64,000 nucleotides of DNA, from IMG/VR virus record IMGVR_UViG_3300031555_003603, positions 1 to 64,000 of that record, one strand, 5' to 3'. Positions 1-64,000 of the stretch are shown piece by piece (position 1 is the stretch's first letter; every line of letters starts with the position of its first letter). The stretch is from a virus. The notes beneath the pieces were generated by a model. That model saw only the letters and a list, made by a program, of their open reading frames with translations, did not search any database and was not told where the DNA came from. A program made the position numbers and the translations under genes.

Positions 1-135
1 ATGCTAACGCTGGTACCAATGGTATTGCTACTTACTCCTATGAAAAAACAAATATGAGAGTATTGAAACGCACTGATGAAAATATCATTTAGGTTTTATT
101 AAAATAATACAAAAATTTTTTAGGAGGATATTAAA

Positions 136-402
136 ATGGCTTTACAAAAAACTTTAATCTCTAAAGAAGGATTTGAAACTTCTTACCATAAGGTAAGTGA
201 AGTATCTTTAAGAGAGGCTACTTTAAACTGTGTAGTTAATTCCTATGTATCTAAAGAATATCGTGAGTTAGAGCGTCCTGCAGACCGCCAATTCTTTAGC
301 TTTGAAATTACTATTGAAGAAGAAGAGTCTATGGGCATTCGCCAACTTGCTTATAAGAAAATTAAAGAACTGCCTGAATGGGCAGACGCAGAAGACTGCT
401 AA
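136..402 (+). CDS. hypothetical protein (88 aa)
   Basis: Intact ORF with AGGAGG RBS 8 nt upstream; followed by hairpin terminator. Confidence 0.55.
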   Translation: MALQKTLISKEGFETSYHKVSEVSLREATLNCVVNSYVSKEYRELERPADRQFFSFEITIEEEESMGIRQLAYKKIKELPEWADAEDC

Positions 403-406
403 TAAA

Positions 407-440
407 AAGACCGGTAGAGTAAAATCTACCGGTCTTTTTT
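407..440 (+). terminator. rho-independent terminator
   Basis: aagaccggtaga / tctaccggtctt stem followed by T-run. Confidence 0.7.
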
Positions 441-467
441 GATTTTTTATAAAAAATATTATATAAT
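439..467 (+). promoter_or_regulatory. sigma70-like promoter (-35 TTGATT, 17-bp spacer, -10 TATAAT)
   Basis: Motif instance; same architecture recurs >12 times in window immediately after terminators. Confidence 0.6.
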
Positions 468-503
468 ATTTATGTAATAAAGATAAAGGAGTAAATATTA
501 TAA

Positions 504-58801: not shown

Positions 58802-58805
58802 ATAA

Positions 58806-60221
58806 TTACCTCTCTTTCATTAGATTATATTTTTTTAAATTAGCAAAATTACACTCATCAATTTCATAGGCGGTTGCATTAAAAGTATAGAGCATACGGC
58901 CCACCGTATCATTTGGAGATAAAGATACATTCATTAATCGAATAATAAATACCCCTTCTGTAGGAGAACGGAATACTTTAGGTTCTCCATTGTTTAGCCA
59001 TTCTAATACTTTGTTTCTAAAGATGCGTTCAGCTTTTATATTTGACATAGATAATGAGGTATTTTTTATAAAAGTATAGTCTTCATCATCAGGTGTAGAG
59101 CTACGAGAAGGCTCAGTTTTAAAACCTAAATCTTCATCAGCCATAAATAAATCATTATTATTCATATGATATGAAATCATACCAGAAATAGGAAATTCTT
59201 TATATTTTGTATCTCCATTTCTAAAGAAGAATGGAAATTGTCCACCAATTGTATCTACTTTACTTTCCATAACAGTTTCTTTAAAAGAAGAAATTTTAGG
59301 ATTAAACTTTACACTTAGTTGTTTAGAAGCATCAGATAAAAATATATCTTCATAATCCGTAGCAATTGAAACGTCTTCATATTGTTTATTTTCTAATACA
59401 TATAACCTATAATCATATTGAATTCCCTATTCAATAATATTATCTATATAAGTGCTATTGGCTGCTAAGGAGGTTATAATTTCTCCATTTCTACTTAAAA
59501 TACCTTGTCTTAAAACTTTAATAGTATTCTAGCCTAAGTCAATGTCGTTCTATATGGACAAATATTGATTTTCCTCACTTTTGTCAAAACTTTTTAGCAA
59601 TATTTCTTCAGCAATTTGTACTAATCCATTTATACTCTTAGTTGTATATTTTATTATTACATCTCTATCTAAAAAAGCGTACTGATAATTATATTTATCA
59701 ATTTTTTCAGAGGCATTATGTAATAGTTCGCCCGAAGATTCAATCAGAAGAGGATTATTAGGAATATTCTCATATATATCAAATTGATAACTATATAATT
59801 TTTCATTAGGGTCTGTAGATGGCGCTTGATATATACCCTCTACATAAGTAAATAAATCCTCTGTATTTAACATTAATGTTGGCTCAGCTGTGTATTTAAA
59901 TACGCCAACTGTGGAGTAATGTCCAATTACTCCTTCTTTATCAATATAAGCAAGTTGTGCTTTATAAAACTAACCAATTGTTAGTAGCTGCATATCTGTC
60001 AAACTAAAATTGGCTTCTTTATCTCCTTCTAAAGTGGCAACTTCTAGTCCGGTAGATATAGTTTTGATTAGGAGGCTCATTTTATCATAATCATCCGCAC
60101 CCACCGTTCTATTATGCGCGTAGGGGATACAAAGTGTATCCCCTATTTGTGCTGGTAGTTTACCATCAATACTGGGAGGTAATAATTTTGTTGCCATAAC
60201 AGCAAACCTCCTTTTTATCAT
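58806..60221 (-). CDS. virion structural protein (putative baseplate component), 471 aa, 4 in-frame TAG
   Basis: Joins ORF-track 58806..59270, 59550..59873, 59970..60221 in one frame. Confidence 0.5.
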
Positions 60222-60583
60222 TCCTCAATCATAAACATGATTGCTGACATTTGTTGATATGTTAATTCGATTCCGTCGAAGTCATCGAGCTTGAACATAT
60301 GTAAGTTGATATCTTGCTCTAAATTAAATAAATCATTTAGTTCACGATTTACGGCTTCCATATTCTCAGAAGGAATATCGTAACCGTTTTGCGCTTCGTT
60401 GATTGTGCCGAATTGCGCACCGATACTTAAACGAGCTTTTTCAATTTCTTCAGCCGCTTGTTGAATCAATTGGATATTTTTTTGTAGATAAAAATTGATT
60501 CGAACAGGCATTTTTATATTTTGACTTTCTTGTATAAATAAAGAAAGTTGTTGATTATAATTATAAATTTGAATATTTTTCAT
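60218..60583 (-). CDS. hypothetical structural-module protein
   Basis: GGAGG RBS; TAATG overlap with tail-fiber stop. Confidence 0.45.
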   Translation of the reverse strand: MKNIQIYNYNQQLSLFIQESQNIKMPVRINFYLQKNIQLIQQAAEEIEKARLSIGAQFGTINEAQNGYDIPSENMEAVNRELNDLFNLEQDINLHMFKLDDFDGIELTYQQMSAIMFMIEE

Positions 60584-63500
60584 TATTTTACATATCCTCC
60601 AGAAATCTATGTGGCTTTTAAATAATTCTGATTATCAATTTCTACTTTATATATATTAGAACCTTTGTACATATATATTATAGAAGCAAAATTACCCTAA
60701 GGTGTACCATCATATTGTAGATATCCCTATTTTATATTCTAAAAACAATCGGCTTTACTCAAAACATTAAATACATTCTCCCAGCTTCTAAAAGTAGTAA
60801 TACTACCACTAGAAGGGAGATTTCGTTCAATACCAGTTGGTTTTAATGAAATGTAAGCGGTTCCTTCCCAACCACTTAAACTATTACCATCAATGCTCCA
60901 GCCGCCTATATTACCTCCTTGTGTTGCAGTAATTGTACCAGTAATATTAGCACCAGTACAATGCAGCTCCCCTGCACTATTAACCGAAAATTTAGTTCCT
61001 ATTCTTAAGCGGTAATTCTCATCTGTGTCATAAGCAGTATATAGGCCAATAAAGCCTGAGCTTCCTGGAGTTCCACTAGTTAACTAGTATCCGTAAGTAT
61101 TAGGAGCTAAAGTCCATCCTCCTATTGCGCCACTTGTGGCAGTAATTATGCCGGAAATATTTGCTCCAGTGGCGTAAAGAATTCCACTATTTGTTACGCC
61201 GAATTTAGGACTCCATATAGACCAATCTTGTCTCTATCCACTAGAACCAACTTGATATATGCCTTTCTAAACGCCTGAACCGCTTAAAAACATACCGAGG
61301 TCGCCATTGCTCTTGATATAATTCAAACTATTTTTTGAAATAGTCCAGCTTGCGATGCGTCCACCACCAGAGGTATATAAATACCCATCTTTGGTTACTC
61401 CAAAATTTTTTCCCATTGTAAGCACCCAACTCTAATTACTACCACTACCGCCAATTTCAGATTCAGTAGTAAAAGGAGTGGCACATAAATAAGCAGAATT
61501 ATCTTGGCCTATTGTACCATAAGCTATATACTAATGATGTATATTATTTATCCAGGTATCTGTAATACTCCACCCAGCAATATTTCCTTTAGTTGCCATA
61601 ATAGTGCCAGAAAAAGTTCCTGAGGCGCCAGTAATATTACCCGCAAATGTGGCATTACCAGATGCATCAATTGAAAACTATTTAGAAAATAAAGTTCCAT
61701 TCTTTAAATCAATTTTTAATCCTGTCGCATTTTCATCATTATCCGCTCTAATGCTACCATCTTTAGGATTAATCCAACCATTAGAAGCAATAATTCCATC
61801 AGTGCCATTAAACTATATGCGGCCTGCGCCGCTACCACCAATAAACGCGGTACCATCGTCGCGGAAGCCATATGTTTGCGCACCATCTTTATAGCCATAG
61901 AGACCAGTTTTACGATTTTGAGTTTGTCCATCAATATTTCCAATCTCGCCCAAAATAACACCATTAAAGGCATTATTTTCATTCATATAGCCGGACGCAA
62001 AGGCATTGGTTAAAATTCTATTATTTTCATTATCAATAATTGTTTCGCCATCCCAATTATTTAATACGTCAGAACCATATTTATATTGCTAAATAATTAG
62101 TGGTGAAGTCCATACAATAATTGACTCTCCATCAATAGTAATAGCAGCTTTTAAATACGCCTCTTCTTGTATACCAGTATACATAGAAGGTGCTATTAAT
62201 CTATAAACCAAATCATCAGAAATTTTTATCTGCGGCATTTGACTGAGTTTACGTTCATAATAACTAGAGGTTGTATCAAAACTATAAATAATTTCCCATA
62301 TTACATTATCTATCTCCACATTATTATTATCAAATAATTTTAATGGAAAACCATTGCTTGTCATTGCTTTAGTTAAAGAGCTAAAAGAATCATAAATAAT
62401 TTTAATCGGTACTGAAGCATGATATTGATTTTTAAATGAATAAATTACTGGATATAAAGTTTCTAATTTAATATCACGTTCAGCCCACTTTACATTAGCA
62501 GAAGCTCTAATTACATTATAGGCCTCGGGTGTAAAATCATCACCGCTCGCAGAATCTAAGTTAAATTCGGAAATAGTAATTTCATTCCCTTGTAAATCCA
62601 AAAGTTTAGCTTCAAAATCTGCTAACTAGGCTTGACCTTCACTAAACCCATATATTCTATCATCCGTGGGTTTAACTACTAAAGTATAATCTGTACCAGA
62701 AGTTCCCTAAGAAGAGAATACTATATTTTTAGTGGCGGAAACTGTAAAACCCGATGGTACAGTTATTGTACAAGTAATTATATTATTAAAATATAACTCG
62801 TGATAAACCTCACTTAATCGATAAGAAAAAGTTGCTGCCTCTTCAAAAGTAATAGTCTTATCAACTGTTTTAATCTAAGGTTGTGCAACTATCATTGAGG
62901 CACCTTCTGGTACTTTCCATTCTATTGTCGTGCCAGTCCAATCATAATTTTCTAAAGAGCCTAGGCGCCATATTGGCTTTACTCTAATTGTTCTTGTTTT
63001 ATTTGCTTCCCCTGGCATTGCCAAATTATCTTCACCATAAATAGGATAAGCATCTTGAGCGTTTTTATCATTTATAATTGATAAAGTAATATCTTCACCA
63101 AACACTAAGTGGGATTTATCGGTTTGATTGGTAAAGGTTAAATAATTAGATTTATATTTTTGACCGTTGCGCCATACAATGGCATAAACTTCGGTCATCG
63201 TAATCTCGGGTATGCAGCTTATTCCCTAAGAGATTATTTCTCCTTCGTTTATAAGCTTTGCCGCCCCTGAGCTATCATCAGCATACCACTCAATCCAATA
63301 ATAAATATTAGAATCGCCTTCTGGAAAATCTTTTATTGTTCTCATAGCATAATCTTTATTAAATTTACCATCGTCAAATCCTAATAATTTATTATCCTAT
63401 GTCTTATTATACCAAATCAATCTAATAGACCTAGATAAATTATCAGGACTATAATTCATATTGTCATTGGTATAAATTTTTACAGTCTTATCAGCTACCT

Positions 63501-64000
63501 AAGAAACATCGGTTCCCAGGAAAATATTTATATTAGAAACCCAAATATTAGGAACTCCATTTGGCGTAATAAGCGTAGGTTCCTCTTTACCTTCTTCTTT
63601 ATATTTAAAATCACCATTTTGATATAAATAAATTGAAATTGTATTTATAATTCCAATAGGAGAAGAAAATTTATGTGCTTGCTGCTGCATCATTGGCGCA
63701 ATGTAGGCATATGGATTACCGAACATATCGGTCATACTATCTAAAAATAAATCTCCGCCACTGATTTCCTTGTCATCTTCGACTTGCGCGAAGTGTACTC
63801 TTAGACCATAGCGTCCGCCGCGCATATTATATGCATCTAATAGACACTAAAAATCTGCTTGAATAGCCAAAGTATCATAAATGGCGGTATCATATGAGCC
63901 AGTAAATTTTTCTATAAAAATTTCATTTAAGGGTTCATTATTATCTTTATTAATTCCATTGGCTTCTATACTGGCAGATAAATTTTCATTTGGGTCGGTA
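60583..64000 (-). CDS. tail fiber protein, 5'-truncated by window edge (>1139 codons), ~19 in-frame TAG
   Basis: No TAA/TGA in this frame for 3.4 kb at ~33% GC; repeated GNITG.SGTFSGTI.AT.G.IGGW modules typical of phage tail-fiber repeats. Confidence 0.6.

Follow-up and report, generated by a model that had tools for sequence, protein, structure and literature searches.

Tailed phages in which the stop codon TAG is translated as glutamine (translation table 15, here code 15) have already been described, and the NCBI taxonomy contains a node named 'Caudoviricetes code 15 clade'. The gut phage phAss-1 (Babkin et al. 2023, PMC10607447; GenBank OQ749652, filed under that node), proposed as 'Phassvirus', has a genome of ~136 kb in which TAG stands for Gln in 41 open reading frames (ORFs); it bears three tRNA-Sup-CTA genes, has no dedicated aminoacyl-tRNA synthetase, and shows affinities to SPbeta and Enterococcus phage EF1 (PMC10607447). 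Borges et al. found recoded stop codons concentrated in structural and lysis genes, variably in replication genes, and preferentially in intron and homing endonucleases; suppressor tRNAs accompany the recoding, the code varies among close relatives, and Firmicutes hosts were predicted. For crAss-like phages, Peters et al. (2022, PMC9523058) report TAG as Gln with metaproteomic peptides. Here we analyse a stretch of viral DNA of 64,000 nucleotides, positions 1 to 64,000 of the IMG/VR record IMGVR_UViG_3300031555_003603 (hereafter the window), in which TAG interrupts 28 genes. Our preferred reading, to which we assign a probability of roughly 0.88, is that the window covers roughly half the genome of a tailed gut or rumen phage using code 15, and that the mechanism is most likely the published temporal code switch.

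In-frame TAG codons and coding capacity

Genes were called with a codon-usage model whose training set was restricted to standard-code ORFs of 250 amino acids or more, and four codes were compared. With TAG as a sense codon the call yielded 80 genes, 94.2% coding sequence, 84 in-frame TAGs and the highest total score. Under code 11 it yielded 94 genes and 80.8% coding, and 30 genes would 'end' in TAG. Reading TGA as sense (89 genes, 80.6% coding) or TAA as sense (83 genes, 81.7%) brought no gain, and both total scores stayed below that of the TAG-sense call. With TAG as sense all 80 genes stop at TAA (55) or TGA (25) and none needs a TAG terminator; 11 gene pairs share four-base overlaps of the ATGA type and three overlap by one base.

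The 84 in-frame TAGs are spread over 28 genes; in 23 of these genes a Shine-Dalgarno-like motif precedes the start that was called. Of the 84 TAGs, 82 lie well within genes, with coding signal on both flanks. A read-through test took stop codons preceded by confidently coding sequence and scored the frame behind them as continuing if it remained coding and free of TAA and TGA for 40 codons; this was so for 63 of 129 TAG codons, versus 8 of 137 TAA and 3 of 58 TGA codons. Conserved genes are among those affected: Pfam matches to PhoH (234-426), DNA_pol3_finger (638-812), DHH (66-209), RuvC (4-146, three TAGs), GIY-YIG (272-351, three TAGs) and PG_binding_1 (231-281) all run across TAG.

The initial annotation, made by a model from the letters alone, had proposed that TAG is a sense codon, almost certainly for Gln, and that gene calling with table 15 would show this in the coding density; both are borne out. 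It had counted about 30 genes with more than 90 in-frame TAGs. The in-frame TAGs are real and far above chance, but these totals are slightly high; a raw stop-to-stop listing gives 98 TAGs, inflated by spurious antisense ORFs and by the non-coding region 45754-46047. The positions it had quoted for PhoH (15363), DnaE (43937) and dUTPase (51335) each fall exactly on an in-frame TAG, the domains it had seen crossing TAG, dUTPase apart, are among those recovered with Pfam, and TAA and TGA do still terminate genes, as it had stated. One of its examples of a plausible gene end, 53237..53965, is gene 53231..53965 of our call and has a TGA stop overlapping the next start, whereas another, '45759', apparently refers to an ORF that we rejected (see below).

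The 28 genes, with the evidence for each identification and their TAG numbers, are the following.

60583..63999, minus strand: tail fibre-like gene cut by the window end, 1138 codons in the window, 19 TAGs
58806..60197, minus strand: tail/baseplate protein (phrog_30026), 463 amino acids, 4 TAGs
56603..58801, minus strand: baseplate/tail protein (phrog_32343; phrog_1887, tail), 732 amino acids, 11 TAGs
55555..55989, minus strand: late-block protein (gene call), 144 amino acids, 2 TAGs, that at residue 122 being CAA in two relatives
53231..53965, minus strand: Gly/Ser-rich late-block protein (gene call; ATGA overlap with the next start), 244 amino acids, 3 TAGs
52451..52888, plus strand: protein with an N-terminal membrane helix (phrog_4257), possibly with a lysis or regulatory role, 145 amino acids, 3 TAGs, that at residue 137 being CAA in relatives
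15976..17646, plus strand: endolysin-like protein (Pfam PG_binding_1 and SH3_3), 556 amino acids, 6 TAGs
48999..49736, plus strand: homing endonuclease between nrdD and nrdG (phrog_374/559), 245 amino acids, 4 TAGs
3142..3840, plus strand: homing endonuclease, paralogue of the preceding one (gene call), 232 amino acids, 4 TAGs
33923..34798, plus strand: GIY-YIG homing endonuclease (Pfam GIY-YIG 2-90), 291 amino acids, 2 TAGs
26012..27097, plus strand: coiled-coil and GIY-YIG endonuclease (Pfam), 361 amino acids, 5 TAGs, 3 of them inside the GIY-YIG match
51885..52361, plus strand: RuvC-like Holliday junction resolvase (Pfam), 158 amino acids, 3 TAGs (51909, 52080, 52296)
51248..51892, plus strand: dUTPase (Pfam), 214 amino acids, 1 TAG (51335)
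50256..50759, plus strand: 167-amino-acid protein (gene call, codon-level alignment), 1 TAG
49733..50242, plus strand: NrdG, anaerobic ribonucleotide reductase activase (phrog_626), 169 amino acids, 1 TAG (50183)
46772..49033, plus strand: NrdD (gene call), 753 amino acids, 1 TAG near the C-terminus (49010)
41885..45769, plus strand: DnaE-type DNA polymerase III alpha subunit, YorL-like (Pfam PHP, DNA_pol3_alpha, finger and HHH_6), 1 TAG (43937)
36264..38018, plus strand: RecJ-like exonuclease, YorK-like (Pfam DHH, DHHA1, RecJ_OB), 584 amino acids, 3 TAGs
35891..36226, plus strand: 111-amino-acid protein (gene call), 1 TAG
31396..32082, plus strand: zinc-finger repeat protein (repeat seen in the translation), 228 amino acids, 1 TAG (31471)
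14679..15929, plus strand: PIN and PhoH ATPase (Pfam), 416 amino acids, 1 TAG (15363) just before the Walker A loop
8168..8386, plus strand: 72-amino-acid protein, one of seven small, less certain genes (gene call) with 1 TAG each
10735-11448, 11732-12007, 14043-14402, 14462-14692, 18053-18274 and 25180-25374: the other six of this small set

A standard annotation would shatter these 28 genes, including the polymerase, the endolysin and all tail genes; translation table 15 is required.

The DnaE-type polymerase matches YorL of SPbeta in one piece, at 38% identity over 99% of its length, and its counterpart in Enterococcus phage H1/EF1 at 37%. Its PHP motif PGSLHNHTE begins 5' of the first ATG (region 41849-41924), and judging from the sequence the gene probably starts at TTG 41885, behind an AAGGA motif. 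A second in-frame TGA 5' of the gene was considered and rejected, this TTG start being likelier; ORF 41669-41848, which ends in TGA in the DnaE frame, is a separate gene. Between DnaE and the guanylate kinase gene there is a 340-bp AT-rich gap of low complexity (45770-46110), in which one frame is open only if five TAGs are read. The corresponding ORF (45754-46047) was rejected as non-coding: it is of low complexity and has no homologue, and the guanylate kinase of a relative aligns only from 46111 on. In relative L005 the guanylate kinase is longer (264 amino acids) and abuts DnaE. The gap may be a promoter or regulatory region. Two long antisense ORFs of the naive stop-to-stop list, 552-2423 and 10483-11250 (both minus strand), were likewise rejected as spurious.

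The residue encoded by TAG

As some TAGs had been read as Q in the database proteins, a protein-level tally of Q would be partly circular. The comparison was therefore made at the codon level: the window proteins were aligned with related contigs by tblastn, and the subject codon was read at each aligned window TAG. In the first four syntenic contigs (L003-L006, 48-88% identity) the opposing codons were CAA (12), TAG (11), CAG (4), GAA (3) and TAA (2), with all others occurring once each. Over 53 window TAG sites and loci L001-L006 and L010-L038, with phAss-1 left out, TAG was opposed by TAG 82 times, by CAA 22 times, by CAG 10 times and by any other codon at most 3 times. Sense codons opposite window TAGs (n = 59) encoded Gln in 32 cases, Ala in 7, Glu in 4, Trp in 3 and Lys in 1, and when a substitution matrix derived from these alignments was applied, Gln scored more than 100 log-likelihood units above the next residue. 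Gln was the majority residue at 15 of the 27 TAG sites having any sense codon, and reciprocally 31 of 70 in-frame TAGs of the relatives were opposite a Gln of the window. The tally of aligned residues that the initial annotation had suggested as a check thus shows a strong enrichment of Gln.

Phages with the standard code point to the same residue. Enterococcus phage H1 has CAA at all three TAG sites of the RuvC-like gene (LDQA, EDIQ, TQDE), as has L005. At the DnaE site (43937) SPbeta yorL has CAA and L005 has CAG, and at residue 70 of the RecJ-like protein, within the motif FVQVDSD, the codon of SPbeta yorK is CAG. The code-15 phage phAss-1 has Gln codons at the PhoH site (CAG), at the NrdG site (CAA; CAG or CAA in four relatives) and in the 'YIGQ' motif (CAG) opposite 'YVGx' of endonuclease 26012..27097; at residue 18 of the RecJ-like protein it has TAG itself. 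Among the late genes, the large baseplate/tail protein (56603..58801) has CAG in relatives at residue 227, CAA in Enterococcus phage H1 at residue 329 and CAA or CAG in phAss-1 at residues 98 and 356. Its neighbour 58806..60197 has CAG in three relatives at residue 216, with the other sites kept as TAG, and in 53231..53965 residue 202 is CAA in two relatives, residue 211 CAG and residue 16 CAA, GAA or GAG. The tail fibre-like gene has a homologue of 1227 amino acids beside the tape-measure gene in L035-L037, where the aligned TAG sites are mostly TAG, once CAA and five times another sense codon. The dUTPase site is variable in relatives (ATG, GCG, GAA), and the TAGs of the small genes 8168-8386 and 10735-11448 are kept as TAG in L010.

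Comparisons within the window agree. The two homing endonucleases 48999-49736 and 3142-3840 show the reciprocal exchange of Q and TAG that had been noted earlier (ILQE/ILxN and TTxYSF/TQYKF), and the repeat pair of the zinc-finger protein, FVxTAARRYAH and YIQVTNSTYAH, which had been cited to the same effect, is seen in the translation. Every TAG of endonuclease 48999-49736 is shared with a relative, and a second relative has CAA in its place (GAA in one case). In a protein-level alignment its four TAG columns hold Q in 68, 33 (a tie with K), 87 and 114 of 120 homologues, a tally that is partly circular: the DNA of the contigs encoding those homologues does not give the database proteins under code 11, some of their Q residues are therefore translated TAGs, and this line of evidence was downgraded accordingly. 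Since the closest homologues of this endonuclease sit on contigs that are untranslatable under code 11, its family seems to circulate among recoded phages. PDB sequence searches with the RuvC, PhoH and PG-binding regions taught us almost nothing about the TAG residues; at the TAG of 'KDYxKSFG', inside PG_binding_1 of the endolysin-like protein, a weak PDB match reads 'SAQKALG'. Taken together, these sequence comparisons support, with high confidence, the reading of TAG as Gln, with TAA and TGA as the only terminators.

Two other explanations of the TAG codons have to be weighed against these alignments. If TAG stood for another residue, such as pyrrolysine, Trp, Tyr, Glu or Lys, this would agree with the name 'tRNA-Pyl' that ARAGORN gives to the CUA tRNAs of relatives, with the Glu, Ala and Ser codons found opposite some TAG sites and with the mutual dissimilarity of the three CUA tRNAs of phAss-1. 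'Pyl' is, however, the default name of ARAGORN for the CUA anticodon, and the scanned proteins contained no domain resembling PylS or PylBCD. The most conserved sites carry CAA or CAG in standard-code phages, and the lead of Gln among the aligned sense codons is large; the single Lys and three Trp among 59 exclude a pyrrolysine-like or Trp reading, which leaves this explanation as a whole highly improbable. Even less credit can be given to a standard code in which the TAGs would be nonsense codons of a decaying prophage or artefacts of assembly or sequencing. One genuine-looking nonsense codon does exist, TGA 1848-1850 in a vault-like gene (described below), but it is one against 84 interruptions by TAG. 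No frameshifts are needed, the coding signal continues behind the TAGs, their positions are kept in independent assemblies from other samples, and they are exchanged specifically with CAA and CAG.

Distribution of TAG and its decoding

Among the Gln codons (TAG+CAA+CAG), TAG accounts for 25.5% in tail, lysis and late genes and for 29% in the four homing endonucleases (two of the zinc-finger and nuclease type and two GIY-YIG, with 15 TAGs together). In replication and nucleotide genes its share is 3.7%, which differs from that in the late genes with Fisher p = 1e-12 and from that in the homing endonucleases with p = 1e-7. The tail fibre-like gene, the large baseplate protein and the endolysin hold the most, and tail genes have ~11 TAGs per 1000 codons; TAG is absent from the genes for topoisomerase, ligase, ThyA, DHFR, the SSB-like protein, AAA_24, helicase and primase. 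Most of the latter lie in two blocks.

18267..25123, plus strand: TAG-free early/replication block with RNase H, GyrB-like and GyrA-like topoisomerase subunits and NAD-dependent DNA ligase, 2256 codons, 0 TAGs
27316..33601, plus strand: nearly TAG-free block with ThyA, DHFR, SSB-like, AAA_24 (Sak4-like) and DnaB helicase genes, TAG occurring only in the zinc-finger gene

The first block is readable in the standard code, in contrast to the late genes. The claim of a recoding across the whole window consequently stands as regards the code, but its use is strongly heterogeneous. TAG is concentrated in late and mobile genes, as in the published late-gene recoding pattern. A tape-measure gene of a close relative has 40 TAGs in 2053 codons; a search with the 695-amino-acid tape-measure fragment of an 84-kb relative contig gave no homologue at E <= 1e-20.

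This repetition of the published bias towards late genes and endonucleases supports the view of recoding as a timing lock on late genes. Under the temporal code switch that we favour, the TAG-free early genes would be expressed first, by the unmodified translation machinery of the host. A phage-encoded suppressor tRNA(CUA) of Gln identity would then accumulate and compete with host release factor 1, and only afterwards would the TAG-rich genes of the tail fibre, baseplate, endolysin and homing endonucleases be translated to full length. The phage would presumably encode its own tRNA(CUA) beyond the 65-kb contig to which the window belongs, the tRNA would be charged with Gln, in Bacillota probably by the route of glutamyl-tRNA synthetase and GatCAB, and the uneven distribution of TAG would act as the timer.

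The relatives lend support to this scheme. Reading TAG as sense increases the ORF coverage of their tail loci from 0.28-0.48 to 0.92-0.98, a gain that TGA does not approach, whereas SPbeta and Enterococcus phage H1 gain just 0.6-2.4%. Among the 40-odd loci sharing the vault-like gene (65-99% identity), some gain clearly with TAG as sense and others look standard; the code therefore varies within the group. Since its recoded members and those that seem to use the standard code are separated by no more than ~70% protein identity, studies of the origin of the code switch could profit from it. At a distance of 4-10 kb upstream of the vault-like gene, tRNA arrays are common among these relatives, and in three cases they include a tRNA(CUA) (L015:1474-1551, L028:1005-1079 and L051:4219-4293, with Rfam tRNA scores of 48.9, 37.7 and 55.2 bits, respectively, at a cut-off of 29). 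In all three the discriminator base is G73 and the 1:72 pair is weak or mismatched (U1-A72, U1/U72 or C1/U72). Both are identity features of bacterial tRNA-Gln, and by their sequence these tRNAs would fit glutamine.

Several findings weigh against the proposed scheme. ARAGORN found no tRNA gene in the 64-kb window, and Rfam gave no family at gathering score over the same stretch. The available flanks of the closest relatives (L010 at 99%, L011 at 88% and L061 at 79% identity, as well as L039/L040 and L035-L037) are also without a tRNA, and in the close relative L039 the position at which L051 has its tRNA(CUA) is filled by other genes. By similarity to phage tRNAs, Gln is the nearest isotype for two of the three CUA tRNAs, with small margins that make the assignment weak. 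Pfam or PHROG scans of 56 window proteins revealed no release factor and no Gln-tRNA or other aminoacyl-tRNA synthetase (10 further, mostly large proteins, including topoisomerase and ligase, were identified by eye only, and ~14 small ones were left out). Finally, since the replication genes for RecJ and RuvC carry three TAGs each and the holin-like gene 56195-56584 carries none, the split between early and late genes is statistical, not absolute.

Other elements related to tRNA were observed in this group. The 184-kb relative L015 encodes a full-length ROOL RNA (L015:56-643; RF03087, 318 bits) ~0.8 kb upstream of its tRNA(CUA); Rfam detected no ROOL RNA in the window. The window has a TAG-free gene for a free-standing protein resembling YqeY and the C-terminal region of GatB (7498-7911, plus strand; PF09424, E = 1e-13; phrog_1460, 'tRNA amidotransferase'), adjoining an RNA ligase gene (5989-7416, plus strand). 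The protein is found in L010 (91% identity) and at ~30% identity in L023, L024 and L026, and is absent from phAss-1. YqeY domains serve as tRNA(Gln)-binding parts of GatB and of the glutaminyl-tRNA synthetase of Deinococcus. The protein could assist the amidation or charging of a Gln suppressor tRNA, but it is not specific to recoded phages, as it has a PHROG family of its own.

How TAG is decoded might also be explained in other ways. The lack of a suppressor tRNA on the window contig and on the flanks of its closest relatives would be understandable if the host itself read TAG as Gln and the phage merely matched the code of its host. An ordinary Gln codon of the host would not be expected to be avoided by a whole large block of genes, however, and more distant relatives encode their own tRNA(CUA); to our knowledge, no bacterial lineage with genome-wide TAG as Gln has been described. 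We regard a recoded host as very unlikely. A further scenario, still improbable though somewhat less so, is that the sub-lineage of the window and its relatives of at least 79% identity has lost the tRNA(CUA) that more distant relatives carry between the tail fibre-like and vault-like genes, and that TAG is decoded by another route. The suppressor might then lie elsewhere and be helped by the YqeY/GatB-like protein (7498-7911) and the RNA ligase, or a co-infecting helper or a near-cognate tRNA of the host might take its place; if true, this would be a mechanism of code change new for code-15 phages. A more serious, if tentative, suggestion is that TAG has a dual meaning that depends on time or context, acting as a terminator in some genes or early in infection and as Gln once the suppressor is abundant, with truncated and full-length products side by side. 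The TAG of NrdD (49010) is exactly opposite the TAA stop of NrdD in L003/L004, reading it adds a tail of six residues, and the last sense codon of endonuclease 3142-3840 is a TAG (3835) with TAA directly behind it. The published model itself includes termination at TAG before the switch. On the other hand, all genes end in TAA or TGA and all TAGs but two lie well inside genes, so that, as far as the sequence tells, these two are the only sites where TAG could still terminate. A dual meaning would refine the temporal switch rather than replace it.

Phage identity and comparison with known systems

The window is AT-rich (GC content 35.2%) and its proteins are those of a tailed phage. The replication and nucleotide genes are on the plus strand (RNase H, GyrB/GyrA-like topoisomerase, NAD-dependent ligase, ThyA, DHFR, SSB-like, AAA_24, DnaB helicase, primase, RecJ-like exonuclease, PIF1/RecD-like helicase, DnaE, guanylate kinase, NrdD/NrdG, dUTPase and RuvC), and the remainder of the window, from 52.9 kb on, is taken up by a minus-strand late block of holin, baseplate and tail proteins and the tail fibre. 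Exact protein matches trace the window to a JGI/IMG contig of 65,102 bp, and a 40-mer from the window end had no exact match in IMG/VR or in the JGI metagenome collection. As the contigs of relatives reach 90-240 kb, over half of the genome lies outside the window. These relatives come from gut and rumen metagenomes and were binned into metagenome-assembled genomes (MAGs) of Acutalibacteraceae, Eubacteriales, Butyrivibrio and other Clostridia, a weak hint at the host which agrees with the prediction for phAss-1. The replication module of the SPbeta/Enterococcus EF1 type places the phage with phages of Bacillota, the host being probably a member of the Clostridia.

ORFs 504-1850 and 1920-2966 (plus strand) form one vault-like gene of 821 codons (504-2966), resembling that of the major vault protein, with an in-frame TGA at 1848-1850; the second part has a Pfam MVP_shoulder match, and a member of the same cluster is a fused protein of 821 amino acids. 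The TGA, the only non-TAG interruption found, is TGG (Trp) in 38 of 38 relatives, including one of 99% identity, and is either a nonsense variant, a sequencing error or a lone UGA read-through. More than 40 phage-like contigs, 90-400 kb long and drawn from IMG/VR, from metagenomes and from MAG bins of Clostridia, carry the vault-like gene with 65-99% identity. Another gene of the window encodes a flotillin/band-7-like coiled-coil protein of 507 amino acids (12250-13773, plus strand). Neither protein has a PHROG match, and neither has a homologue in phAss-1.

The code-15 crAss-like phages, for which peptides are available, belong to a different order, infect Bacteroidota and have different replication and structural genes. 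With SPbeta (NC_001884) and Enterococcus H1/EF1 the window shares, at 34-58% identity, the order Sak4/AAA_24, DnaB helicase, primase, RecJ-like exonuclease, (RecD-like helicase), YorL-type DnaE, guanylate kinase, dUTPase and resolvase, followed by a tail block on the opposite strand; homologues of yorG, yorI, yorJ and yorK keep the order they have in SPbeta. Both phages differ in using the standard code, and they have Gln codons at sites that are TAG in the window. When positions 36000-60000 were compared by megablast with the GenBank phages, a collection that includes OQ749652, nothing matched, and no GenBank phage reaches 60% identity in DnaE.

The resemblance to phAss-1 extends over the DnaE-type polymerase, RecJ, RuvC, NrdD/NrdG, PhoH, type II topoisomerase and a GIY-YIG endonuclease, and 24 of the 80 window proteins have a homologue there. 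The amino-acid identities are only 25-45%, however, with no match at the nucleotide level and another gene order; the phage of the window is therefore not a Phassvirus. Two Sup tRNAs lie beside nrdD in phAss-1. The window has no tRNA there; its nrdD and nrdG are separated by a homing endonuclease, which relatives have at an identical insertion site. Compared with the clades of Borges et al., the window shows all the features listed above except the tRNA, and no code-change module of tRNA, release factor or aminoacyl-tRNA synthetase was found in it. The phage thus represents a new, divergent lineage of the already described code-15 phages. The phenomenon itself is established and its current understanding is unchanged; what is added is a lineage in which vault-like and flotillin-like genes accompany an SPbeta-like replication module.

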